DNA of 64,000 nt from Eubacteriales bacterium (GTDB lineage: Bacteria > Bacillota > Clostridia > Oscillospirales > CAG-272): NCBI GenBank assembly GCA_045577925.1, contig JAZNJH010000008.1, forward strand, positions 15,973 to 79,972, given 5' to 3'. Position numbers and translations under genes: made by a program. The notes under the pieces are model-generated. The model searched no databases, had not been told where the DNA came from, and was given only the letters and a program-made list of their open reading frames with translations. Positions 19,246 through 34,652 of the stretch are shown here, in pieces. Every line of letters begins with the position of its first letter. Position 1 is the first letter of the stretch.

Positions 19246-19251
19246 AAAATG

Positions 19252-19276
19252 AAAGCGGCTGAAATTGCCGCTTTTC
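19252..19276 (+). terminator. Rho-independent terminator
   Basis: aagcggc (19253-19259) / gccgctt (19267-19273), then tttc. Confidence 0.55.
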
Positions 19277-19340
19277 TCATGCTTTGATAATTTAAACAAA
19301 AAATAATATAAAAATATTATTTATATTAAACTAATTGCTA

Positions 19341-19369
19341 TTGACAATGAGGGCGTGTTGTGTTACAAT
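19341..19369 (+). promoter_or_regulatory. Sigma-A-type promoter of the pyr operon
   Basis: TTGACA (19341-19346), 17-nt spacer, TACAAT (19364-19369). Confidence 0.65.
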
Positions 19370-19495
19370 ATAGAGGATAAATCCGATACCGAAACGGACG
19401 GATACAAAATCTCTATGGCGATGGCAGTGGGATCGGCAGGACGGAGATATATAAATATGCGGGCGTACTATAACTGTGTGCGTCGGTCTGTTTAT

Positions 19496-19524
19496 GTCTT
19501 GCCGCGTCGGGCAAGGCTTTTTTT
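19496..19524 (+). terminator. Intrinsic terminator inside the pyr leader (attenuator)
   Basis: gtcttgcc (19496-19503) / ggcaaggc (19510-19517), followed by seven T. It lies about 120 nt upstream of pyrC. Confidence 0.65.
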
Positions 19525-19544
19525 GTACGGTGCGGCTATGCATT

Positions 19545-19574
19545 TTTCAGGCAAGGGTATAACTATGCCTGAAA
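19545..19574 (+). promoter_or_regulatory. Second leader hairpin between the attenuator and pyrC
   Basis: tttcaggca (19545-19553) / tgcctgaaa (19566-19574) with a 12-nt loop. Confidence 0.4.
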
Positions 19575-19640
19575 TCTCCCTTTCTGATTTAAACTTTAGT
19601 CAAGTCATGGGCGCATGCTCAATGAAAGGATAAATTTCTG

Positions 19641-20831
19641 ATGAAAAAACTCGTGAACGCAAAGGTTATAGACTTAGGTATGCTCGACAGCTTTTCGCCG
19701 TCGGACGAGCTTTTGCATTCCCTTGATTTTGCCAAATATACTATTTTTCCCGGTTTTTGCGATGTGCACGTTCATTTTCGCGAGCCGGGATTTATTTATA
19801 AGGAAACGATAAAAAGCGGAAGTGAGGCGGCAGCGGCAGGAGGATATACTGCGGTATGTACAATGCCTAATCTGAATCCCGTACCCGATTCTCCCGAGAA
19901 TCTGAAGCTGCAGACAGACGCTATTGAAAAGGACGCGGTTATCGACGTGTATCCGTATGCATCAATAACAGTTGGCCAGCGCGGCGAAGAGCTTTCAGAT
20001 TTTGCAGCCCTTGCCGGCACAGCAATAGCATTTTCCGATGACGGACGCGGAGTTCAGTCGGACGATATGATGCTTAAAGCTATGCTCGAAGCAAAGCGGC
20101 TCGGGAAAATGATAGTAGCACACTGCGAGGTCAACTCGCTGCTCAATGGCGGTTATATTCACGACGGTGTATACGCAAAAGAACACGGGCACCGTGGAAT
20201 ATGCTCGGAGAGTGAATACAAGCAGATTGAACGCGACCTCAGGCTTGCGGAGGAAACGGGTTGCGCATATCACGTGTGCCATATCTCGACAAAAGAAAGT
20301 GTTGAGCTTATAAGGCAGGCGAAGGCGAGAGGAGTGGACGTAACCTGCGAAACAGCGCCTCACTACCTTGTGCTTGACGAAAACGACTTAAAGGAAGAGG
20401 GAAGATTCAAAATGAATCCCCCGATTAGAAGTAATGAAGACAAGCTTGCGCTAATCGAAGGCATATGCGACGGCACAATAGATATGATAGCGACCGACCA
20501 CGCTCCGCACTCAATTGAAGAAAAATCAAAAGGACTTGAAAAGAGCGCTTTCGGCATAGTCGGACTTGAAACGGCTTTTCCGGTTATGTACACGCATCTT
20601 GTGAAGAAAAATATAATAAGCCTTGAAAAGCTTATTGAGCTTATGGCGATAAATCCGAGAAAACGGTTTAAAATACCAATAGATAATGATTTTTCTGTTT
20701 GGGCACTTGATGAAGAGATAACGGTAAGCCCTGATGAATTTAAGTCAATGGGAAAGGCAACACCCTTTGATGGGGAAAATTTATACGGTAAACATATAAC
20801 AACGATATACAGGGGGAAAAGAGTATGTTAA
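19641..20831 (+). CDS. pyrC: Dihydroorotase
   Basis: DVHVHFREPG, AFSDDG, VAHCE, HVCHIST and ATDHAPH metal-ligand motifs. Confidence 0.9.
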   Translation: MKKLVNAKVIDLGMLDSFSPSDELLHSLDFAKYTIFPGFCDVHVHFREPGFIYKETIKSGSEAAAAGGYTAVCTMPNLNPVPDSPENLKLQTDAIEKDAVIDVYPYASITVGQRGEELSDFAALAGTAIAFSDDGRGVQSDDMMLKAMLEAKRLGKMIVAHCEVNSLLNGGYIHDGVYAKEHGHRGICSESEYKQIERDLRLAEETGCAYHVCHISTKESVELIRQAKARGVDVTCETAPHYLVLDENDLKEEGRFKMNPPIRSNEDKLALIEGICDGTIDMIATDHAPHSIEEKSKGLEKSAFGIVGLETAFPVMYTHLVKKNIISLEKLIELMAINPRKRFKIPIDNDFSVWALDEEITVSPDEFKSMGKATPFDGENLYGKHITTIYRGKRVC

Positions 20832-21925
20832 AGGAATTTGATAAAAAAATCGTACTTGAAGACGGAAGCGAGTATTACGGCTACGCGTTCGGCGCAAAAG
20901 AAAAAGAACGTGTTACCGAAATAGTATTCAACACCTCTATGGTAGGTTATCAGGAGATAGTGTCTGATCCGACGTATATAAATCAGACGGTAGTTATGAC
21001 GTATACCCTTATAGGTAACTATGGTATAACGGATGAGGACTTTGAGTCTAAAACACTAACAATTGGCGGACTTGTTGTAAGAGAATACAATAACTTCCCG
21101 TCAAACTTCAGATATACCAAAACTCTTGCCGAGCTTATGGAAGAAAATGACATTCCCGGTATATACGGACTTGATACCCGTAAGCTTGCGCGCTCAATCA
21201 GAGATAACGGTAGCTGCAGAGCGTTTATATGTTCAGCATCAACGCCTCTCGACAAAGCGCTTGAAATTCTGAAGTCAACTGAGTTTCCAAAGGACGAAGT
21301 TGCAAAGGTAAGCTGCAAAAAGAGATGGTACTCAAGAACACCTAACCCTAAGTATAACGTTGTTGCAGTAGACTGCGGAATCAAGCTCAGCATAGTACGC
21401 ACACTCAACGCAATCGGATGCAACGTAACTGTAATTCCGTGGGATACCCCTGCAAGTGAAGTTGAAATGATGAAGCCTGACGGTATTTTCATATCAGACG
21501 GGCCGGGCGATCCTGCAGACGCAGTTGCAGTAATCGACCTCATAAAAGAGCTCAAGGGCAATTATCCGATATTCGGAGAGGGCCTTGGACATCAGATGAT
21601 AAGCCTTGCTTATGGCGCAAAGATAAGCAAGCTTAAATTCGGTCACCGTGGATGCAATCATCCGGTCAAGGACCTTGAAACAGGACTTGTTTCAATAGAA
21701 ACTCAGAACCATTCGTTTGTTGTTGATAAAGAGAGCCTGACTAAAACAAAGCTTGAAGCTACGCACATAAATCTTCTCGATGATACAGTTGAGGGAGTAA
21801 GATGCGCAACAGATAAGGTTTACGGTGTACAGTATTACCCCGGAACAGAGAAAGGCCCCAAGGGCAGCGACAACTTTTTCGATAAATTTATAAAAGTAAT
21901 GAAGGAGGGCAAAGCAAATGCCTAA
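20825..21925 (+). CDS. carA: Carbamoyl-phosphate synthase small subunit homologue lacking the glutaminase catalytic triad
   Basis: Colinear CarA features: [36 protein letters not shown]. The GATase signature reads FGEGLGHQ rather than FGICLGHQ, and the C-terminal motif reads VQYYPG rather than QGHPE. Confidence 0.9.
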
Positions 21926-24900
21926 GAGAACTGATTTAAAGAAAATACTCGTAATCGGCTCAGGCCCTATTGTAATCGGTCAGGCGGCTGAATTCGACTA
22001 CGCCGGAACACAGGCGTGCCTCGCTCTCAAAGAAGAGGGTTATGAGGTAGTTCTTTGTAACTCAAACCCTGCAACAATTATGACAGACACAACTATTGCC
22101 GATAAGGTATATATGGAACCTCTGACACTTGAATATATAGCAAAGATACTCCGTTACGAAAGACCTGACGCGATAGTTCCCGGTATCGGCGGTCAGACAG
22201 GACTTAACCTCGCGATGCAGCTTGAAAAGAAGGGTATTCTCAAAGAGTGCCAGGTTGAGCTTCTCGGTACAAGCAGCGACAGTATAGAAATGGCAGAAGA
22301 CAGAGAGAGATTCAAGGAGCTTTGCGAAAGACTCGGTGAGCCTGTTCTCCCTTCGCTTATAGCTAATTCCATGGATGAAGGATTAGCGGCAGCAGAAGAG
22401 ATCGGATATCCCGTTGTTCTTCGCCCCGCTTTTACACTCGGCGGTACAGGCGGGGGCTTTGCCAATAACGAAGAAGAATTCAGAGAAATAATGAAGAATG
22501 CACTCGTGCTTTCTCCTGTACATCAGGTGCTCGTAGAAAAGAGCATCAAGGGATACAAGGAGATCGAATACGAGGCAATGCGCGATGCTAATGACACCGC
22601 AATTACAATATGCAATATGGAAAACGTAGACCCCGTCGGAATCCATACAGGTGACTCGATAGTAGTTTGCCCGTCGCAGACTCTTACGAACAAGGAGCAT
22701 CAGATGCTTCGCTCAAGTGCGCTTAAAATAATCCGTGCACTCAAGATTGAGGGAGGATGTAATATTCAGTTTGCACTCGACCCCCACTCGTTCAAGTATT
22801 ACCTTATCGAAGTAAATCCCAGAGTTTCGCGCTCATCCGCACTTGCATCCAAGGCAAGTGGCTTCCCGATAGCACGTGTATCAGCAAAAATAAGCGTTGG
22901 TATGCACCTTGACGAGATCCAACTTGCAAATACTCCTGCATCATTTGAACCTGCAATTGACTATGTTGTAACAAAGATGCCTCGTTTCCCGTTCGATAAA
23001 TTCACAACCGCGAATAATGTTCTCGGCACGCAGATGAAGGCAACCGGTGAGGTAATGAGCATCGGACGTACGATTGAAGAAAGCCTTCTCAAAGCAATCC
23101 GCTCGCTTGAAATTGGCGTGTACCACCTTCACATGCACAAGTTCGATTCTTATAAAGCTGACGAGCTTTTAGAATATGTGAAGCTTGGAACAGACGACAG
23201 AATTTATGCCATAGCAGAGCTTCTTCGCCGTGGTGCTGACATCGGTATGATCGCCGATGCAACGCAGATAGATATGCTCTTTATTGAAAAGTTCAAGAAT
23301 ATCATAGACGAAGAAAATGAGCTTAAGGCGAACGTCGGAAACCTCGACGTATTAAGAGAAGCTAAGAGAATGGGCTTCTGCGACAGAGCAGTTGCAGACA
23401 TGTGGTCAATGAGCGAGCTTGACGTTTTCAATATGCGTGTTAAAGAAAACATCATGCCGGTTTATAAGATGATCGACTCATGCGCTTCCGAGTTCAAGAG
23501 TTACGTTCCTTACCTTTACTCAACGTACGAAGAGGAAAACGAATCAGTAGTAACCGACCGTAAGAAAGTAATCGTTCTCGGTTCAGGTCCTATCCGAATC
23601 GGACAGGGCGTTGAGTTTGACTATTCAACAGTACACGCGGTATCAACAATAAGAAAAGCGGGTTATGAAGCTATAATAATAAACAATAACCCTGAAACAG
23701 TATCAACGGACTATACGACCTCAGATAAGCTCTACTTTGAGCCTCTCTGTACTGAGGACGTAATGAATATAATTATGCTTGAAAAGCCTGACGGTGTTAT
23801 CGCTTCTCTCGGAGGACAGACAGCAATCAACCTTGCAGAACCGCTCAGAGCACGCGGAGTCAAGCTTATCGGTACAGATTGCGATGCTATTGAACGTGCC
23901 GAAAACCGCGATTCTTTTGAAAAGATCCTTCACTCGCTAAGCATCCCTCAGCCTAAGGGTAAGGCGGTAACTAAAATTGAAGACGGCGTAAAGGCAGCGG
24001 CAGATATCGGATATCCCGTTCTCGTTCGCCCGAGCTTTGTTCTCGGCGGACGTGCGATGCAGATAGTAGCAAATGAAGAACAGCTTCGCCACTACCTCAA
24101 GACAGCGGTTGAAATTGATGATGATAAGCCCGTACTCGTTGATAAGTATATACAGGGCAAGGAAGTTGAAGTAGATGCAGTATGCGACGGTAAGGACGTG
24201 TTCATTCCCGGTATCATGGAGCTTGTTGAAAGAACAGGTATCCACTCGGGTGACTCGATAAGCGTTTACCCCTCATTCAGTATTTCGCAGAAAGTCAAGG
24301 ATAAGATTATTGAATATACCGAAAAGCTGGGACTTGGTATCGGAATCATCGGACTTTTCAATATCCAGTTTATCGTTGATTCAAACGAAGATGTGTATAT
24401 CATAGAAGTAAACCCCCGTTCATCACGTACTGTTCCGTTTCTTTCCAAGGCAACGGGATACAGCCTTGCAGATATTGCAACACTTGTAATACTCGGCAAG
24501 TCACTAAAGGAGCAGGGCTATACAGAAAAATATCCGGCAGAAAAGAAGCGCTATTATGTAAAAGTTCCTGCCTTCTCGTTCTCGAAACTTCGCGGACTTG
24601 ACGCGTACCTCTCGCCCGAAATGAAGTCAACGGGTGAAGCAATAGGTTATGATGATAAGATGACACGTGCGCTTTACAAAGCACTTCAGGCATCGGGTAT
24701 GAACCTTATGAACTACGGAACAGTTCTTGTAACAGTAGCAGACAGAGATAAGGAAGAAGCGCTTCCTCTTATAAGAAGATTCTATAACCTCGGTTTCAAT
24801 ATTCAGGCAACTGAAGGAACAGCTGAGTTCTTGAAACAACACGGGATACGCACGAGAGTAAAGCAGAAGATCAGTGAAGGATCTGATGATATCCCTAGTG

Positions 24901-25094
24901 CTATAAGACAGGGATACGTTACCTACGTTATCAATACCCGTGACGTTGCAAGTGGCGCCGAAAACGACGGACACGCAATAAGACAGTGCGCCGTTGAAAA
25001 TAACGTAACTATATTCACGGCGCTCGATACAGTACGTGTTGTGCTTGACGTGCTTGAGGAAACAACGCTTCTCATTTCAACTATTGATGCGTAA
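21918..25094 (+). CDS. carB: Carbamoyl-phosphate synthase large subunit
   Basis: 1058 aa, two ATP-grasp halves ([23 protein letters not shown] and [22 protein letters not shown]) and a C-terminal MGS-like allosteric domain. Confidence 0.95.
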
Positions 25095-25111
25095 GACGGA
25101 GACTTTATATT

Positions 25112-25846
25112 ATGAAGCAGACCTTGTTTGAAATAACTCAAAATAAAGCACTGACCTCAAGCGTGTATAAAATGGTGCTTAGAGGAGATACAACAGATAT
25201 CACTTCACCGGGGCAGTTTGTTAATATAAAGCTTGACGGACTTTATCTGCGCAGACCTATATCAGTCTGTGACTGTGAAGAAGGAAAACTTACTCTTATC
25301 TATAAGGTGGTAGGACACGGCACAGAGCAGATGAGTAAAATGTCAGATGGCAGGCTTGATATTCTGACAGGTCTTGGTAACGGATACGATACAATAAAAT
25401 CAGGAGACCACCCTCTGCTTGTAGGCGGAGGTGTTGGTGTGCCGCCGCTTTACATGCTCGCTAAAAAGCTTATTAGCGATGGCAAAAAGGTAAGCGTAGT
25501 GCTTGGTTTCAATACAAAAGACGAGATATTCTGTGAAGAAGACTTCAAGGCACTCGGCGCAGAAGTTTACGTTACGACCGTAGACGGAAGCTATGGAGTA
25601 AAAGGCTTCGTTACAAACGTCATTGATTCTATCGACTATACCTACACGTATTCGTGCGGGCCTGAGCCTATGCTTAAAGCGCTTTACAACGCTTCGAAGA
25701 CCTCAGGACAGTATAGCTTTGAAGAACGTATGGGATGCGGATTCGGAGCGTGCATGGGATGCTCGTGCAAGACATTATACGGCAACAAGAGAATATGTAA
25801 AGACGGTCCTGTGCTTGAAAAGGAGGAGATAATATGGGAAAAATGA
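25112..25846 (+). CDS. pyrK: Dihydroorotate dehydrogenase B electron-transfer subunit
   Basis: FAD motif LRRPISV and the C-terminal 2Fe-2S cysteines MGCGFGACMGCSC...ICKDGP. Confidence 0.9.
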   Translation: MKQTLFEITQNKALTSSVYKMVLRGDTTDITSPGQFVNIKLDGLYLRRPISVCDCEEGKLTLIYKVVGHGTEQMSKMSDGRLDILTGLGNGYDTIKSGDHPLLVGGGVGVPPLYMLAKKLISDGKKVSVVLGFNTKDEIFCEEDFKALGAEVYVTTVDGSYGVKGFVTNVIDSIDYTYTYSCGPEPMLKALYNASKTSGQYSFEERMGCGFGACMGCSCKTLYGNKRICKDGPVLEKEEIIWEK

Positions 25847-26748
25847 ACGTAAATTTATGCGGCATTGAGCTTGATAACCCGATTATCCCCGCAAGCGGAA
25901 CGTTTGGATTCGGCAGAGAATTTGCTGAGCTTTACGATATAAATATTCTAGGTACTTTCTCGTTTAAAGGAACAACAAAAGACCCTCGCTTCGGTAATCC
26001 CACACCGAGAATTGCCGAGTGCAAGGCGGGCATGATAAATGCCGTTGGACTGCAGAATCCCGGTGTAGAAAAGGTAATAGCCGAAGAACTTTCTGAGCTT
26101 CGTAAAATATTCAATAAAAAAGTAATGGCAAACGTGAGTGGATTTTCTGTTGAGGATTATGCATACACGTGTGAAAAGCTTGATAAGTGTGAACAGGTCG
26201 GCTGGCTTGAAGTAAACGTTAGCTGCCCTAACGTACACGGCGGCGGCATGAGCTTCGGTACGTCTCCGGAAGCGGCGGCGACAGTTACAAAGGCAGTAAA
26301 GGCTGTCACAACAAAGCCTGTTATAATCAAGCTTTCGCCTAACGTTACAGACATCGTAAGCATAGCAAAAGCTTGCGAGGAGGCAGGTGCCGACGGTATC
26401 AGCCTTATAAACACACTTCTCGGAATGAGAATAGACCTCAAGACAAAAAAGCCTGTTATAGCCAATAAAATGGGCGGCTTCTCGGGCGATGCGATTTTCC
26501 CCGTAGCCGTAAGAATGGTATACCAGGTAGCCACAGCAGTAAAAATACCCGTTGTCGGTATGGGCGGCGTATCATCTGCCGAAGACGTGATTGAAATGAT
26601 GCTTGCAGGTGCAACTGCCGTTGAAGTAGGTGCTGCAAACCTCATAAATCCGTACGCCTGCCGTGATATAATTAACGATCTCCCGGCGGTAATGGAAAAA
26701 TATAAAATAAACTCTCTTGCCGAGATAATCGGTGCAGCGAGAGACTGA
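25834..26748 (+). CDS. pyrD: Dihydroorotate dehydrogenase B catalytic subunit
   Basis: PASGTFG, class 1 catalytic Cys in [11 protein letters not shown], and the GGV FMN phosphate site. Confidence 0.9.
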
Positions 26749-26765
26749 CAGAAAGGAAAATCAAA

Positions 26766-27464
26766 ATGGGTAAGGACGTAATTATTGCCTGCGATTTTAA
26801 TAGCGCAGAGCAGGTCTTCGCATTTCTCGATAAATTTACAGACACAAAGCCTTTCGTAAAGATCGGCATGGAGCTTTATTATGCGGAAGGTCCGCAAATC
26901 GTTAAGGAGATCAAAGCAAGAGGACATAAGATCTTCCTTGATCTCAAGCTTCACGATATTCCCAACACAGTAAAGAAGTCTATGGCGGTTCTTTCAAACC
27001 TAGACGTTGATATGTGTAATCTTCACGCATCAGGTACAGGTAAAATGATGGAAGCGGCCCTTGAAGGACTCACACGTCCAGACGGCACACGTCCGCTTCT
27101 TATCGCAGTAACTCAGCTTACTTCAACAGATGAAGAAACCATGAGAACTGACCTTCTTATAGAAAAGCCTATCGACGAGGTTGTTATGCATTACGCAAAA
27201 AATGCAAAGAACGCAGGACTTGACGGTGTGGTTTGCTCGCCTCTTGAAGCAGGTAAGGTTCACGATCTCTGCGGTAAGGACTTTATGACGGTAACTCCAG
27301 GCGTCCGTTTTGCAGACGGCGACATTGGCGACCAGAAGAGAGTTATGACTCCTGCGCAGGCAAAGGAAATAGGATCCGACTATATAGTAGTCGGAAGACC
27401 GATAACTGCGGCGGAAGATCCGGTAGCGGCGTATAAGAGATGCGTTACTGAATTCGTAGGGTAA
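26766..27464 (+). CDS. pyrF: Orotidine 5'-phosphate decarboxylase
   Basis: [12 protein letters not shown] active-site motif and a VVGRPI C-terminal motif. Confidence 0.9.
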
Positions 27465-27482
27465 AAAGAAAGGAATAAAATT

Positions 27483-28115
27483 ATGGAAAAGCTTATAGCA
27501 AAAGATTTACTATCAATAAAGGCGGTATTTTTCCGTCCCGACGAGCCTTTTACATGGGCAAGCGGAATCAAGAGCCCCGTATATTGCGATAACAGACTCA
27601 CACTTACAGCACCCAAGGTACGTAACGACGTAGAAAACGGACTCTGTGAGCTTGTAAAGAAGCATTACCCTGAATGCGAAGTACTTATGGGAACTTCAAC
27701 AGCCGGCATCGCTCACGCAGCTATCTGCGGACATATCCTCGATATGCCTATGGGCTACGTTCGTTCAGGCGCTAAGGATCACGGCAGACAGAATCAGATC
27801 GAGGGTAAGCTTGAAGCAGGACAGAAGGTCGTCGTAGTGGAAGACCTTATCTCAACAGGCGGAAGCGTTATCGAAGTAGTAAACGTTTTAAGAGAAGCCG
27901 GTGCCGAAGTTCTCGGTATCGTCAGCATCTTCACATATGGTATGAAGAAAGGTCTTGACCGCCTTGCGGAAGCAAACGTCAAGAACGTGTCGCTTACAAA
28001 CTTTGACGTTATCGCAGAGGTAGCGTCTGAAGAAGGCTACATTAAGCCAGAAGACGTAAAAAGACTTATCGCTTTCAGAAACAATCCCTCAGACGAAAGC
28101 TGGATAAAAGCGTAA
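27483..28115 (+). CDS. pyrE: Orotate phosphoribosyltransferase
   Basis: PRPP-binding [13 protein letters not shown]; 210 aa. Confidence 0.9.
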
Positions 28116-28155
28116 AAACGTTTTGTGCCGCAATGGCGGCTGAATGGAGAAAATC

Positions 28156-29268
28156 ATGAGAAGTCTTATGGATCCGCTTGATTTAAGCGTTGAGGAAATT
28201 GACGAGCTTATTGCGCGTGCAAACGATATTATAGATAACCCGGCAAAATACAGCGAAATGTGCCGCGGCAAGAAGCTTGCAACACTCTTTTTTGAACCGT
28301 CAACAAGAACTCGACTGAGTTTTGAAGCGGCTATGTACGAGCTTGGCGGAAATGTTCTCGGCTTTTCTGCTGCAAACAGTTCATCTGCTGCAAAAGGTGA
28401 AAGCGTTGCTGATACGGCAAAAACGGTTAGCTGCTATGCCGATATTATCGCTATGCGCCACCCTCTTGAGGGCGCACCTTACGTTGCATCACTTAACTCA
28501 GACGTCCCGATAATAAATGCAGGAGACGGAGGACATAACCATCCGACCCAGACCCTTGCAGACCTTTTAACGATAAGCCGCGAAAAGGGAAGACTCAATA
28601 ATCTTACAGTCGGATTTTGCGGAGACCTCAAATACGGCAGAACTGTTCACTCGCTTATAATTGCACTTGCAAGATATGCAGGTATTAAAATAGTTCTCAT
28701 ATCACCCGATGAACTAAAACTTCCCAACTACGTTAAGATCGGCGTTCTTGACAGACAGAATATTCCTTACAGTGAATGTGACGATCTTGAAAAAGCTATA
28801 CCTGAGCTTGATATACTCTATATGACACGCATACAGGGTGAGCGCTTTGCAGATAAAGACGAGTATGAACGTCTCAAGGACTTTTACATACTTACTCCCG
28901 ATAAGCTAACCCATGCTAAAGAGGACCTTTCGATAATGCATCCGCTTCCCAGAGTAAATGAGATAAGCGTTGCAATAGATAATGATAAGCGTGCTTGCTA
29001 TTTCAAGCAGGTAAGTAACGGTAAGTATATCCGTATGGCGCTTATACTTAAGCTGCTCGGTATTACTGAGTCTGATGCGCCCAAACCTGATAAGAGCAAG
29101 GAAATTCTTATAAAAGATAAGCTTGTATGTAAGAATACAAGATGTATTACCTCCTCTGAACAGGAGCTTGAACAGGTCTTCAAGGTAACAGACGTTGATG
29201 CCGGAATCTGCAGATGTATATACTGCGAGAAGAAATCCGAAAAGCTTTATAGCGAAATAAATCTTTAA
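28156..29268 (+). CDS. pyrB: Aspartate carbamoyltransferase catalytic chain fused to a PyrI-type zinc domain
   Basis: ATCase motifs [21 protein letters not shown] and HPLPRVNEI. The C-terminal ~50 aa, [10 protein letters not shown]...CRCIYCEKK, match the PyrI Zn domain (Cx4C...Cx2C). ATG at 28156 follows GGAGA; an alternative ATG lies at 28144. Confidence 0.85.
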
Positions 29269-29276
29269 ATTATAAT

Positions 29277-29300
29277 GGCGTACAGTCTTTTCTGTACGCC
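29277..29300 (+). terminator. Terminator hairpin at the end of the pyr operon
   Basis: ggcgtacag (29277-29285) / ctgtacgcc (29292-29300); the downstream T-tract is weak. Confidence 0.5.
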
Positions 29301-29362: not shown

Positions 29363-30724
29363 ATGTTAAGAAGTGAAAAAATAAAGAGAATATATGCCTT
29401 TATAATAAGTGCACTCCTTATCGTATCGATCGCGGCGCTTGTTTGGGCTATGAATAATCAGACTGCGCTTTGCAGAGACGATTATTCATATTCGTATACC
29501 TTCGCAGTCAAAGAAAACAAATTCAGAATAACAAATTTCAGGCAGATCATAGATTCTCAGATAAATCACTATAAGGTGATGAACGGACGAGCTGTAACAC
29601 ATACGCTTGCGCAAACCTTTCTGATGTTTGATAAAAGTATCTTTAATCTAATCAACACAGTGGCGTTTATTATTCTGATCTGTCTTATAGTATATCACTC
29701 AAAACAGGCAGGGAAGAACCACTTTTCGATAATGTTTCTTTCCGCTTTTTTGAGCCTCTGGTTCTTTACACCGTCATTCGGTAAGAGTTATTTGTGGCTA
29801 ACAGGGGCGTGCAACTACCTCTGGGGCATTCTTATAATACTTTTATACCTTTTGCCGCTCAGACACGCTTTGAACGGACCCTGCGGCATGAAGTTGACGA
29901 CCATGATAGTCCTGTCGCCTCTGTATTTTGTTTCAGGGCTTATAGCAGGGTGGACAAACGAAAATACGTCAGCGGCTCTAATGGTTATTAGTTTGCTTCT
30001 GATAATTGCAATAACTATAAAATACAGGCGCTTACCCGTGTGGCCACTTACAGGTTTTGCTGGCAACATCTGCGGATTTCTTTTGATGATACTTGCACCG
30101 GGTCAGTCGGTAAGACTTGAAGCAAACGGCGGATTCGGTTCTGTTGATGTGTGGCTTAAGCGCTTTGTGTCTATCAGTACCGATATGTTTAAATATCATG
30201 GGATACTCCTGATGCTGGCCTTTATATTTGTAGTGATAGCCATAATAAGAAAAAACAAACCAAAAGACTTTCTTATCACAGGTATATTTTTCGTTGGTTG
30301 GCTTGCATCTGTATATTCAATGATACTCTCACCATACTTTCCGCTTCGAACCTGGAGTGGACCGACGATACTTTTAACGATAACGCTTTTGTCTGCAATG
30401 TCGCAAGCATTGCCTGAAGATATTGGCAGAAAAACAAGTGTTATTATATGCATTATAGCCGCATGTCTTGGATATATATTTGCCGAGGATTATAAGCAAG
30501 CATATAATGATGTCAGCATAACCAAAGCGGCGGTTGATGCGCGTGTGGAAGCCATAAACAACGCTAAAAGAGAGGGAGTAAGCGAAATCGAACTCGATGC
30601 CATATACGGGCATTCAAGATTTGATGCATACGTTTCCATAGGAGATTTGAACAATGACTCATCAACATGGCCAAATACGGCAATTGCTATGTACTTTGGA
30701 CTTGATGAGGTTAGAAAAAAGTAA
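29363..30724 (+). CDS. Polytopic membrane protein (about 11-12 TM), possibly a GT-C-like/DUF6056-type glycosyltransferase
   Basis: 453 aa with hydrophobic segments throughout. A conserved-looking N-terminal loop CRDDYSYSY...NGRAVTHTLAQ and a soluble C-terminal tail. The function is a guess. Confidence 0.6.
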   Translation: MLRSEKIKRIYAFIISALLIVSIAALVWAMNNQTALCRDDYSYSYTFAVKENKFRITNFRQIIDSQINHYKVMNGRAVTHTLAQTFLMFDKSIFNLINTVAFIILICLIVYHSKQAGKNHFSIMFLSAFLSLWFFTPSFGKSYLWLTGACNYLWGILIILLYLLPLRHALNGPCGMKLTTMIVLSPLYFVSGLIAGWTNENTSAALMVISLLLIIAITIKYRRLPVWPLTGFAGNICGFLLMILAPGQSVRLEANGGFGSVDVWLKRFVSISTDMFKYHGILLMLAFIFVVIAIIRKNKPKDFLITGIFFVGWLASVYSMILSPYFPLRTWSGPTILLTITLLSAMSQALPEDIGRKTSVIICIIAACLGYIFAEDYKQAYNDVSITKAAVDARVEAINNAKREGVSEIELDAIYGHSRFDAYVSIGDLNNDSSTWPNTAIAMYFGLDEVRKK

Positions 30725-30751
30725 AAGGAACGGGGAAACCCGTTCCTTTTT
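30723..30751. terminator. Bidirectional terminator between the membrane protein gene and pdp
   Basis: aggaacggg (30726-30734)-gaaa-cccgttcct (30739-47), flanked by A-run and T-run. Confidence 0.75.
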
Positions 30752-32048
30752 ATATAATTTCAAAAATAAGCGGATGCTCTTCAGGTTTGCTATCAGAATA
30801 AGTTATCGATGACTTAAATATTTCAAAGGCTTCGGTGGCAAGCGCGGGAGTTGATGTGTGAAGCTCGGCAATTATATCGCCATCATTAACCTTGTCACCC
30901 GTTTTTTTCTTTAGAATAATACCGGCAAGCGGATCAATCCTTGAATTTTTGTCTGTACGGCCTGCACCGAGTTTTGTACTTGCAAGCCCAATCTTCTCTG
31001 TGTCCATAGCACAGATATACCCCTCGGTTTCAGCTTTCACCGGTACGACAACATTTGCTTTGCCAAACATATCGGGTGCTGATATATAACGAACGTCACC
31101 GCCTTGATACCCGATCCACTCAATAAACTTTTTGTATGCCGAACCCGATGCAAGTGTCTCACGGGCAAGCTCTATACCTTCAGAGTCGGATATTCCTCTG
31201 ACAGATGCTACAATCATTCCTGCAAGCGTTATCGAAACCTCTCTTAAATCGTCAGGGCCTCTTCCGGCAAGCACTTCAATCGCTTCCTTAACTTCAAGCA
31301 CGTTGCCGATAGCATAGCCGAGAGGCGTGTTCATGTCCGTTAAAGCCGCGCGAACGTTTCTGCCGCATCTTTTTCCGATATCACACATAATATGTGCCAG
31401 TTTCTTTGCGCTTTCAATATCGTGCATGAAAGCGCCGCTTCCGACTTTTACGTCAAGTACTATATTATGAGAGCCTGCGGCGATTTTCTTGCTCATTATA
31501 CTTGATGCAATAAGTGGCGCCGATTCAACCGTGCCCGTAACGTCTCTGAGGGCATAAAGCGCCTTGTCGGCCGGAGCAAGCAAACCACTTTGACCAACAA
31601 CCGCTATGTTTATATCTTTCACCTGATTTATAAATTCAATGGGCGTAAGCTCACTTTTGTAGCCGGGTATACTTTCAAGCTTGTCAACAGTACCGCCGGT
31701 GTGGCCCAGCGCCCGGCCTGACATTTTCGCTATCTTACATTCAAGCGCCGCCGTAATTGGCGCTACTATAAGCGTTGTTTTGTCGCCAACACCGCCCGTG
31801 CTGTGCTTGTCAGCAGAGAGCTTGCCAAAAACAGAAAGATCGAGCATATCACCCGACTTAGCCATGGCATCGGTAAGCTTTGCAGTCTCTTTTGTCGTCA
31901 TACCGGCAAAACAAACAGCCATAAGGAAAGCTGAGAGCTGATAATCGGGTATGGAAGCACCGGTAACACCGTCTATCAGAAAATCTATCTCGTAATCTGA
32001 AAGCTCCTGACCCGAGCGCTTCTTTTTTATTATGTCAATAAAGTTCAT
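30750..32048 (-). CDS. pdp: Pyrimidine-nucleoside (thymidine) phosphorylase
   Basis: DKHSTGGVGDKTT phosphate-binding motif; 432 aa. Confidence 0.9.
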   Translation of the reverse strand: MNFIDIIKKKRSGQELSDYEIDFLIDGVTGASIPDYQLSAFLMAVCFAGMTTKETAKLTDAMAKSGDMLDLSVFGKLSADKHSTGGVGDKTTLIVAPITAALECKIAKMSGRALGHTGGTVDKLESIPGYKSELTPIEFINQVKDINIAVVGQSGLLAPADKALYALRDVTGTVESAPLIASSIMSKKIAAGSHNIVLDVKVGSGAFMHDIESAKKLAHIMCDIGKRCGRNVRAALTDMNTPLGYAIGNVLEVKEAIEVLAGRGPDDLREVSITLAGMIVASVRGISDSEGIELARETLASGSAYKKFIEWIGYQGGDVRYISAPDMFGKANVVVPVKAETEGYICAMDTEKIGLASTKLGAGRTDKNSRIDPLAGIILKKKTGDKVNDGDIIAELHTSTPALATEAFEIFKSSITYSDSKPEEHPLIFEII

Positions 32049-32058
32049 ATTGCCTCCA

Positions 32059-33231
32059 TTATCGCTTTAAAATGGCATCAGCAAAGCTTTTGCCGGGAGT
32101 TTCAAAATCAACTCCAAGTATGTCGCATATAGTAGCCGCAATATCTGCAAATGTTGATCTTGTTGAAAGATTAACAGGCCTTATATCTTTTCCGTAAATA
32201 AGCAGGGGAGTGTATTCACGCGTGTGATCGGTGCTTAGGTCGCCCGGATCACAACCATGGTCTGCCGTGATGAAAAGAATATCACTATCGTTCATTTTAT
32301 CAATAAAACTTGAAATTTGCTTGTCTGCTTCAGACAAAGCCTTTGCATATCCGTCAATATCGTTTCTGTGACCGTAAATTGAATCAAAATCAACGAGGTT
32401 TGTAAAGCACAGACCGCTAAAATCACGATTTAATAGTTCATGAGTCAGCCTCATACCATCATCATTTGATTTTGATAGCAACGTATCGGTAACACCACAA
32501 CCTGCAAAAATATCCGTTATTTTGCCAATGGCAATTACGTCACCGCCGCTTGTTTTGATCGCATCAAGCATAGTTTCACTCGTTGGTTCAAGTGAAAAAT
32601 CGTGCCTGTTCGCTGTGCGCTTGAACTTGGGATACTCTCCAATAAACGGCCGGGCAATAACTCTGCCAACAGCATGCCTGCCACAGAGAAGCTTTCGCGC
32701 TATACGGCAATATTCGTATAGCTTTTCAGGTGCTACTATATCTTCGTGCGCGGCTATCTGGAAAACGCTGTCCGCGGAAGTATAGACGATAAGCGCACCG
32801 CTTTGAATATGTTCCCGTCCATAATCGCGTATAACATCTGTTCCGGAATAAGGCTTGTTGCACAAAATCTTTCTTCCTGTAAGTCTTTCAAACTCGCTTA
32901 TTATCTCATCAGGAAATCCGTTAGGATAAGTTGGCAGAGGAGTGTCAGATATGATTCCAGCAATCTCCCAATGGCCAATCGTAGTATCCTTGCCGCATGA
33001 AGCCTCAGACATACGTGCATACGCCGCAAGTGGCGAATCTATACAACCTAAATATTCCTGTCCATCAATATTTCCTATTCCAAGACGTTTAAGTGTCGGA
33101 ATATTAAAATACGCAGAGCTTGAAATGCGTCTGAGCGTATCAGTTTCTTCATCGTGAAAGTCAGCGGCATCAGGCATGGCACCGATTCCGAGACTGTCGA
33201 GGACTATCAAAAATATTTTTCTGTTGTTCAT
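32059..33231 (-). CDS. deoB: Phosphopentomutase
   Basis: N-terminal IVLDSLGIG and ITADHGCDPG metal-binding motifs; 390 aa. Confidence 0.9.
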   Translation of the reverse strand: MNNRKIFLIVLDSLGIGAMPDAADFHDEETDTLRRISSSAYFNIPTLKRLGIGNIDGQEYLGCIDSPLAAYARMSEASCGKDTTIGHWEIAGIISDTPLPTYPNGFPDEIISEFERLTGRKILCNKPYSGTDVIRDYGREHIQSGALIVYTSADSVFQIAAHEDIVAPEKLYEYCRIARKLLCGRHAVGRVIARPFIGEYPKFKRTANRHDFSLEPTSETMLDAIKTSGGDVIAIGKITDIFAGCGVTDTLLSKSNDDGMRLTHELLNRDFSGLCFTNLVDFDSIYGHRNDIDGYAKALSEADKQISSFIDKMNDSDILFITADHGCDPGDLSTDHTREYTPLLIYGKDIRPVNLSTRSTFADIAATICDILGVDFETPGKSFADAILKR

Positions 33232-33956
33232 TTATTCTCCATTTTGACTGCCGTGTCAAGTGCAATCTCCATCATCTTCACAAAGGTAGTCTGTCTTTCT
33301 TCGCTTGTTGTCTGCTCGCCTGTCAGTATATGGTCTGATATCGTGCATATAGCAAGTGCAGACTTTCCTGCGCGTGCTGCAGTCATATATAGGCCTGCCG
33401 CTTCCATTTCAACTGCGAGTACACCCATTTTTCTCCATGCGTCTGTTGCAGATATATCATCACTGTAAAATCTGTCAGAAGATAGCAGATTGCCAACGTG
33501 GAAAGTGCTATTATGCTTTTCTGCCTGCTCTATGGCAGTTTTCATAAGAGTATAGTCTGCAATCGGTGCGAAGCTTCCGGGAAGCCTATACTGTCCTGCA
33601 AATGCAGAATCAGTGCAGGCGCCCATACCGATAACTATATCTCTGAGCTTTAATTTTTCGCTCATAGCACCTGCAGAGCCTATTCTGATAATGTTTTCAA
33701 CGCCAAAGAAATTGTAAAGCTCGTATGAGTATATTCCGATTGACGGCATGCCCATACCGCTCGCCATAACACTTACGTTAACACCTTTGTATTTTCCCGT
33801 ATATCCCTGAATTGAACGTACGTTGTTTATAAGTCTTGCATTTTCAAGAAAGTTTTTTGCAACAAATTCGCTTCTTAAAGGGTCGCCGGGCATGAGGACG
33901 GTTTTAGCAAAATCATCAGGGGTAGCATTTATGTGAGGAGTAGGGTAGTTTTTCAT
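33228..33956 (-). CDS. deoD: Purine nucleoside phosphorylase, DeoD type
   Basis: PTPHINA..., GMGMPSIGIYSYEL and AVEMEAAGLY motifs; 242 aa. Confidence 0.9.
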   Translation of the reverse strand: MKNYPTPHINATPDDFAKTVLMPGDPLRSEFVAKNFLENARLINNVRSIQGYTGKYKGVNVSVMASGMGMPSIGIYSYELYNFFGVENIIRIGSAGAMSEKLKLRDIVIGMGACTDSAFAGQYRLPGSFAPIADYTLMKTAIEQAEKHNSTFHVGNLLSSDRFYSDDISATDAWRKMGVLAVEMEAAGLYMTAARAGKSALAICTISDHILTGEQTTSEERQTTFVKMMEIALDTAVKMENK

Positions 33957-33977
33957 TTTGTAAACCTTCCTTGTATA

Positions 33978-34652
33978 TCAATATCCGCTTGCATTTTCAT
34001 TTTTAACAAGCTTTACGATTCTACTCGTGCCGAGTCTTGAAGCGCCGAGTTTTATAAACTCCTTGGCATCTTCAAGGGATGAGATGCCGCCTGCAGCCTT
34101 GATTTTTACGTGAGGTGCAACATGGTCTGAAAAGAGAATGATGTCTTCTTTCGTAGCACCGCCGGTAGAAAAACCTGTTGACGTTTTAATATAATCCGCA
34201 CCCGACTTACTGACTATTTCGCACATTTTGATTTTTTCTTCATCAGTTAAAAGACACGTTTCAATAATAACTTTGAGTATTTTGTCACCGCAGGCAGCCT
34301 TTACAGCTTTGATCTCAGCAAGGATATTATCATATTCTCGATCCTTGAGCATGCCGAGATTTATGACCATGTCAATCTCATCAGCACCGTTTTCGATAGC
34401 ATTAGCCGCTTCGAAGCGCTTAGCTTCTGTAGTTGAATATCCGTTTGGAAATCCGATAACTGTGCATATACGTACACGTGAATTGGCGTATTCAGCCGCT
34501 CTTTTTACAAAAGAAGCAGGAATACACACAGAAGCAGTCTTGTAAGCTATTCCGTCATCAATGATCTGTTTAATATCAGAAAACTTTGCAGTTGTGGAGA
34601 GCAGAGTATGGTCGACCTTCGCGAGAATTTCTTTTATGTCCATTATTTTCAC
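33978..34652 (-). CDS. deoC: Deoxyribose-phosphate aldolase
   Basis: IDHTLL, the Schiff-base lysine in DYIKTSTGF, and VKAAGGI. Confidence 0.9.

Follow-up and report, generated by a model that had tools for sequence, protein, structure and literature searches.

The window, by which is meant the whole stretch of 64,000 nucleotides of DNA that was analysed, carries a de novo pyrimidine operon in which the ATCase gene is the last and pyrC stands at the opposite end (Table 1). By the list of open reading frames and their Pfam matches there is no separate pyrI in the operon; a part of PyrI is instead fused to the end of the catalytic chain. The hairpin that follows the stop codon probably terminates transcription of the operon, although the scan scored it on the minus strand and it is a match to the consensus only. 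The carB gene of the operon keeps its MGS-like regulatory domain, and a search with Rfam (E <= 0.1) of the region from 17 to 31 kb, including the interval 19250-19640 upstream of pyrC, gave no match to a PyrR-binding leader or to any other known regulatory RNA of pyr genes.

Downstream of the operon a polytopic membrane protein with DUF6056 is encoded, standing alone between the pyrimidine operon and a group of salvage genes. The latter are four open reading frames convergent with the operon that, judged by their translations only, resemble a nucleoside-salvage (deo) cluster with a pyrimidine-nucleoside phosphorylase, a phosphopentomutase, a purine-nucleoside phosphorylase and a deoxyribose-phosphate aldolase. 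If these assignments hold, the genes for de novo synthesis and for salvage would lie tail to tail.

Table 1. The ATCase gene, its parts and its surroundings in the window
Feature	Position	Strand	Description and basis
De novo pyrimidine operon pyrC-carA-carB-pyrK-pyrD-pyrF-pyrE-pyrB::Zn	19641-29268	+	List of open reading frames and Pfam
pyrB::pyrI(Zn) fusion gene	28144-29268	+	374 aa and TAA stop, single open frame; OTCace_N, OTCace and PyrI_C (Pfam)
ATCase catalytic chain, aa 1-305	28144-29058	+	TIGR00670, 332 bits; AlphaFold2 model against catalytic chains; 74% mean identity to homologues
Variable linker, aa 306-321	29059-29106	+	16 residues; 12% mean identity to homologues, length varies; pLDDT 78 (aa 311-320)
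PyrI-type zinc domain, aa 322-366	29107-29241	+	PF02748; invariant residues; fold; dN/dS
Short C-terminal extension KLYSEINL, aa 367-374	29242-29265	+	Gaps in most homologues here
9-bp G+C-rich hairpin	29277-29300		Directly 3' of the stop; consensus scan; 9-pair stem, 6 G-C
DUF6056 polytopic membrane protein	29363-30724	+	453 aa; 373.5 bits
Four open reading frames resembling a deo cluster	30750-34652	-	Translations only

The catalytic part of the protein is that of a complete PyrB. In the whole protein Pfam recognises both carbamoyltransferase domains, OTCace_N with 159.6 bits (aa 6-145) and OTCace with 99.3 bits (aa 153-302), and the NCBIfam model for aspartate carbamoyltransferase, TIGR00670, gives 332.1 bits against a cut-off of 236.95. 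The motifs STRTR, HPTQ and HPLPR, by which a preliminary description of this DNA had recognised the catalytic chain, are located at aa 53-57, 133-136 and 266-270. In an alignment of 73 fused proteins, made up of that of the window and 72 other fused homologues, S53-R57, H133-Q136 and H266-R270 are invariant, as are R166, R229 and Q231, the equivalents of R167, R229 and Q231. Among known catalytic chains, that of P. abyssi scores 298 bits and that of E. coli 271, with only 145 bits for B. subtilis, and the protein therefore belongs to the class-B lineage.

Canonical relatives stop 2-5 residues past ...ALIxKLL, which agrees with the point at which the extension had been said to begin. What follows the linker is homologous to the zinc domain of PyrI, as had also been proposed: PyrI_C (PF02748) matches aa 323-366 of the whole protein with 40.4 bits (gathering cut-off 23.4, E 2.6e-10), the 72-aa stretch encoded by 29050-29265 gives 44.5 bits with the same profile when searched alone, and the tail aligns with positions 96-139 of the 142-position PyrI model NF002063 (NCBIfam). 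The codons of the four putative zinc ligands, C329, C334, C358 and C361, start at 29128, 29143, 29215 and 29224 in the pattern Cx4C...Cx2C, exactly where the preliminary description had put them. There is a fifth cysteine, C356 (codon 29209-29211, within ...ICRCIYC...), two residues before C358; 31 of the 73 sequences have C at this position and 29 have Y, and C356 is probably not a ligand, though it could bear on redox behaviour. The C-terminal extension KLYSEINL is identical in one relative (G004) and similar in two (G001 and G007), with comparable tails found mainly within the same genus.

Models that describe the whole of PyrI fall well below their cut-offs on this protein (TIGR00240 23.5 bits against 148.55; NF002063 37.2 against 171), and so does the 525-position model of a full PyrB/PyrI fusion, NF009916 (124.6 bits against 800). 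The nucleotide-binding domain of PyrI, PF01948, is unmatched in the gene, in the operon and in the whole assembly (1.68 Mb in 56 contigs, 88.9% complete), and of 14 control genomes searched in the same way 7 contain it. The sole match to PF02748 in the assembly is the open reading frame of the fused gene, which is also the only ATCase found in the genome of this cell. It is unlikely that a free gene for the allosteric domain lies on the DNA that is missing from the 88.9%-complete genome. The earlier claim that the nucleotide-binding domain is absent, with no pyrI in the operon, therefore extends to the assembled genome, and it is confirmed that the gene is a full-length pyrB with an extra zinc domain in one chain, from which the nucleotide-sensing half of PyrI is absent. 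Classical allostery by CTP and ATP through PyrI is thus impossible because the domain that would bind the nucleotides was found neither in the gene, nor in the operon, nor in the assembled genome. To this extent the functional interpretation given beforehand stands; its other parts, a clamp between trimers or alternatively a docking site for DHOase, are considered below.

An AlphaFold2 model of the full chain, built with the 73-sequence alignment, has a mean pLDDT of 91.5 and a pTM of 0.91, with values of 89-93 for the blocks of the tail and 78 for that of the linker, and superposes on the catalytic chains of P. abyssi and E. coli with a TMt of 0.90-0.94. No chain in the PDB covers both the catalytic and the zinc part, the matches of the full chain being catalytic chains only over ~300-314 aligned columns. 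When modelled alone the tail has a pLDDT of 91.7, which is as high as that of the tail in the full chain, and the confidence in the tail is therefore intrinsic to the domain and no proof that it is docked. The top 19 PDB matches of the tail model are all ATCase regulatory chains, amongst them those of M. jannaschii (2yww), S. acidocaldarius (1pg5_B) and E. coli, with a TMq of 0.60-0.73, an rmsd of 1.6-3.3 A and a probability of 0.99-1.00, and the next match has a probability of 0.11. A profile made from 51 fused tails and searched against the whole PDB likewise gives regulatory chains only, aligning with residues 101-144 of the E. coli r chain.

The alignment by this profile allows the residues of the tail to be named after those of E. 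coli. The four ligands correspond to cysteines 109, 114, 138 and 141 of the r chain and N331 to N111r, all of which are invariant in the 73 sequences; Y360 corresponds to Y140r and is present in 97% of them, E362 corresponds to E142r and is always E or D, and K363 corresponds to K143r and is variable (K in 20, S in 18 and T in 14 of the 73). In a preprint (bioRxiv 10.1101/662718, citing Eisenstein et al. 1989, 1990), N111r, N113r and E142r are described as forming a hydrogen-bond network with the 130s-loop/R167 region of the catalytic chain, mutation of N111r/E142r as abolishing the effects of nucleotides (Eisenstein 1989), and K143r as stabilising the T state, which its mutation destabilises. 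With N331, Y360 and E362 kept and K363 variable, it follows that the residues that hold the domain to its own chain are conserved and the residue of the T-state contact to the opposite trimer is not. The pTM of the model also speaks for a tail that packs against the chain to which it is joined, since 54 unplaced residues of 374 would be expected, from the definition of pTM, to cap this value near 0.86, and it is predicted at 0.91.

These observations bear on the proposal that the zinc domain serves to dock a different protein, be it dihydroorotase, some other enzyme of the pathway or a sensor, rather than its own chain. That all the pyrimidine genes lie in one operon would suit such a partnership; however, the residues conserved in the tail are the very ones that contact the catalytic chain in E. 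coli, the predicted pTM argues for packing on the own chain, and neither the genome of the window nor the fused relatives offer a partner with an allosteric domain (PF01948 is above its cut-off in no fused relative, one of them having a weak sub-threshold match in another gene). Nor was any gene noticed that is confined to genomes of the fused form. The particular suggestion that DHOase docks there found no support, the product of pyrC at the far end of the operon matching the DHOase/amidohydrolase families. A docking module for a foreign partner is therefore very improbable, and a zinc domain that serves its own catalytic chain is the reading that is followed here.

The fused form is by no means peculiar to one genome. 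A scan of one genome per species gave > 590 related stretches, and amongst the best 80 loci, which were classified, 51 are fused and 29 have a canonical pyrB and pyrI. These 80 loci all come from uncultured metagenome bins, mostly named from the guts of ruminants or other animals, and bear the labels Clostridia, Oscillospiraceae, Acutalibacteraceae, Ruminococcus and Christensenellaceae. A closer sample consisted of the genome of the window with 60 others of the same genus, family or order, and 48 of these 61 have the PyrB lineage of the window. The PyrB of 28 of the 48 has the fused Cx4C...Cx2C tail, the other 20 having a PyrB that ends shortly past ...ALIxKLL and a separate PyrI of two domains. 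In no genome of this sample do a fused PyrB and a canonical PyrI occur together, and none of the 48 has a bare PyrB, that is one with no zinc domain, fused or separate.

Of 300 Clostridia sampled evenly, 154 encode a PyrB of the class-B lineage, of which ~16 are fused, ~8 are without any match to PF02748 and the rest are canonical. The idea that no class-B catalytic chain can do without a zinc domain, which the absence of bare forms from the 48 genomes of the order sample would allow, thus holds as a tendency only. In a sample of 301 Bacillota, PF02748 was found in only 25, with 3 of these in frames of the size of PyrB, and from the counts in these samples it follows that the fused form is concentrated in the order of the window. 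Bare PyrB of the class-B lineage was seen in all four genomes of one genus, g153 (G193, G246, G299 and G325), and in two further genomes (G272 and G292); these proteins, in frames of 307-344 aa, are 54-65% identical to that of the window, and PF02748 is unmatched anywhere in the six genomes, which are complete or near-complete. As such genomes exist, the zinc domain can be lost entirely and is not indispensable to the lineage.

Precomputed Pfam annotations already show this combination of domains. When the tail was used in a word-based search it gave 23 protein clusters, of which 21 are of 358-375 aa with all three domains, and the remaining two are a protein of 359 aa without a recorded PF02748 match and a fragment of 222 aa. 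Two other leads were set aside. A search of the representative library with a profile of the tail gave 924 matches at E <= 0.001, but the best 150 are nearly all fragments of 41-266 aa, and it was rejected as a count of fused against canonical forms. A frame of 606 aa around one homologue (G050) was considered as a possible further domain, and its N-terminal 255 residues proved to be low-complexity read-through.

The history of the fusion was followed in a maximum-likelihood tree of 67 catalytic domains. The window protein belongs to a clade of 17 members, all of them fused (support 98/97), that is nested among canonical enzymes, the basal branches around it all being canonical and from several orders of Clostridia, and it is therefore the allosteric domain that has been lost. 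There are two further separate fused lineages, one of two members (G034 and G242) and one of a single member (G145), as well as another clade of 17 members, likewise all fused and deeply diverged, with a support of 100/100. The best tree requires 4 switches between the two forms, at least 2 of which are demanded by branches with good support, so the fused form arose more than once; a single origin, which a tree of 48 rows permits, is rejected by the tree of 67 rows with its larger number of canonical sequences. The second fused clade (loci L051-L065, L164 and L165, for instance in G042, G045, G047, G312 and G338) has shorter tails with an E-x-Y-L-P motif, in which the spacing between the cysteine pairs is down to 16 residues, against 23 in the window; several of these tails are below the Pfam threshold and were recognised only by their cysteine pattern.

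How the fusion might have come about can be read from the neighbouring forms. The tail of the window aligns with the last ~45 residues of neighbouring PyrI and has EQEL...F...RCxYCE in common with the PyrI of sister lineages. The gene is derived from a normal pair of neighbouring pyrB and pyrI genes. In the simplest history this pair lost the ~95-residue allosteric domain with an in-frame junction to the zinc part, and the fused gene was afterwards spread by inheritance as well as by horizontal transfer. Within the genus of the window both layouts occur: five genomes (G000, G001, G004, G007 and G008) are fused, and two (G002, locus L009, and G005, locus L008) have pyrE-pyrB-pyrI in the same place, with a PyrB of 313 aa and a PyrI of 138 aa. 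The PyrB of the fused members is 80-96% identical to that of the window and that of the canonical members only 67%, hence one form replaced the other at the same locus in the genus, and the two layouts point to a replacement by gene transfer.

It is apparent from the sequences of the fused proteins that the zinc domain is maintained. Averaged over the 72 homologues, identity to the window protein falls from 74% for the catalytic part to 12% for the linker and rises again to 53% for the zinc domain. Conservation in the latter goes well beyond the metal ligands, as N331 and E339 are invariant along with C329, C334, C358 and C361, and I335, Q340, E341, L342, F346, R357 and Y360 are conserved in at least 90% of the 73 sequences. 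Amongst genomes of the same genus dN/dS is 0.05-0.12 for the zinc domain against 0.02-0.08 for the catalytic part, and the zinc domain is under purifying selection of the same order as the catalytic part. That a frameshift or an assembly error has joined pyrB to a truncated pyrI, or that the tail is a dispensable remnant, may thus be dismissed for practical purposes. It is true that some Clostridia have a class-B-lineage PyrB without a zinc domain, so that the domain can be lost, but the same in-frame layout is found in dozens of independent assemblies, which contradicts the artefact, and invariant ligand residues together with the low dN/dS are not those of a gene in decay; the deep divergence of the second all-fused clade in turn implies long persistence.

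The reading that we favour, with some confidence though far from certainty, is that the gene encodes a nucleotide-insensitive ATCase with a built-in zinc domain that docks on its catalytic chain and stabilises it. The zinc domain would bind one Zn through its four cysteines and would dock at the site that PyrI occupies on the catalytic chain of the classical enzyme, whether in cis or within the trimer, where it would stabilise the catalytic trimer and tune its kinetics. Markby, Zhou and Schachman (PNAS, 1991) reportedly found that an isolated zinc-domain fragment of E. coli forms a stable complex with the catalytic trimer and changes its kinetics, and Peterson and colleagues (Protein Sci, 1994) are said to have found that association with the zinc fragment raises the thermal stability of the trimer. 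Regulatory dimers, whose r-r interface is in the allosteric domain, connect the two trimers of the E. coli holoenzyme. Because both the nucleotide-binding domain and the r-r dimer interface are absent from the fused protein, it would not form the classical c6r6 dodecamer and would not be controlled by CTP, UTP or ATP through PyrI. Control of the pathway would then come from elsewhere, for which carB with its MGS-like domain or gene expression are candidates.

The chief alternative for the same chain corresponds to the clamp between trimers of the preliminary description, in which two trimers would associate as a (c-Zn)6 hexamer with zinc domains that touch the opposite trimer in the manner of the R1-C4 contact of the E. 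coli T state, so that cooperativity for aspartate is kept without control by nucleotides. The catalytic chain does come from a lineage that forms dodecamers, its K163, Y164 and E240 align with K164, Y165 and E239 of E. coli, which link the trimers, and are K, Y and E in the consensus of the family, and the breadth of conservation in the zinc domain would also be in keeping with a hexamer. However, K164, Y165 and E239 make intrachain bonds in the R state as well, so that their conservation is not decisive, the interface that bridges the trimers sits in the missing allosteric domain, which makes the classical bridge impossible, and K363, the counterpart of the T-state residue, varies within the family. 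The engineered E. coli complex of trimer and zinc domain is moreover said to have stayed a trimer in the 1991 work, which counts against a hexamer. This arrangement is thus regarded as unlikely.

In a more general form, the zinc domain may mediate a quaternary structure or a regulation of ATCase that has not been described, of which an aspartate-cooperative (c-Zn)6 or a redox- or zinc-dependent switching at the cysteine site would be examples, and this too is held to be a minor possibility. If it were true, the repeated origin of the fused form in anaerobic gut Clostridia, where no sampled genome has a canonical PyrI beside it, would agree with selection for another mode of regulation. The nucleotide-insensitive enzyme stabilised by its own zinc domain remains the preferred reading in what follows.

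ATCase is the textbook model of allosteric regulation, and a form that retains the zinc domain alone is common in uncultured gut bacteria of the Oscillospiraceae, Acutalibacteraceae and Ruminococcus type. The fused form is the natural counterpart of a classic dissection experiment, that of a catalytic trimer with an isolated zinc domain, and it suggests that most class-B catalytic chains still profit from a zinc domain once nucleotide sensing has been given up. It also provides a one-gene system in which the structural role of the regulatory chain can be separated from its signalling role. For annotation, such genes should be taken as a full-length pyrB with an extra domain and not as frameshifted pyrBI pairs, and in genomes of the fused type the regulation of pyrimidine synthesis by PyrI is not to be expected. 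A review of ATCase from 2015 (PMC4581275) has three prokaryotic quaternary types together with the full PyrB-PyrI fusion of Thermotoga, and the zinc-only form is absent from it. Searches of the literature gave no paper on a PyrB fusion that retains the zinc domain alone, nor a solved structure of one; the zinc-only fusion is an uncharacterised form of class-B ATCase that is common and conserved in its order.

Of the known systems, the class B holoenzyme of E. coli, P. abyssi and M. jannaschii (PyrB6-PyrI6, with two c3 and three r2) shares the catalytic lineage of the window protein and has a homologous zinc domain with the same four cysteines, the equivalents of N111r, Y140r and E142r being kept in the window protein. 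It differs in that its PyrI is a separate chain, whereas here the regulatory part is fused to the catalytic C-terminus, and in having the allosteric domain, with both the nucleotide site and the r-r interface, that the window protein is without. The PyrB-PyrI fusion of Thermotoga maritima is like the window protein in having the catalytic and then the regulatory sequence on one chain, but it keeps a complete PyrI and is allosteric (Chen et al. 1998, as cited in PMC4581275), whereas the window protein, with its 374 aa, lacks PF01948 and is far below the cut-off of NF009916. The class C ATCase of B. subtilis, an unregulated trimer, would be expected to behave in a similar way in that it has no nucleotide allostery through a regulatory chain, yet its PyrB is of a different lineage, as the bit scores given above indicate, and it has no zinc domain. 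The closest functional analogue is the complex engineered from the E. coli trimer and a separate zinc fragment of 70 residues, which has the same composition and from which the prediction is drawn, by analogy, that the trimer would be stabilised and its kinetics changed with no control by nucleotides. That complex consists of two polypeptides brought together in the laboratory, whereas the protein of the window is a natural covalent fusion that has long been conserved and has arisen more than once.
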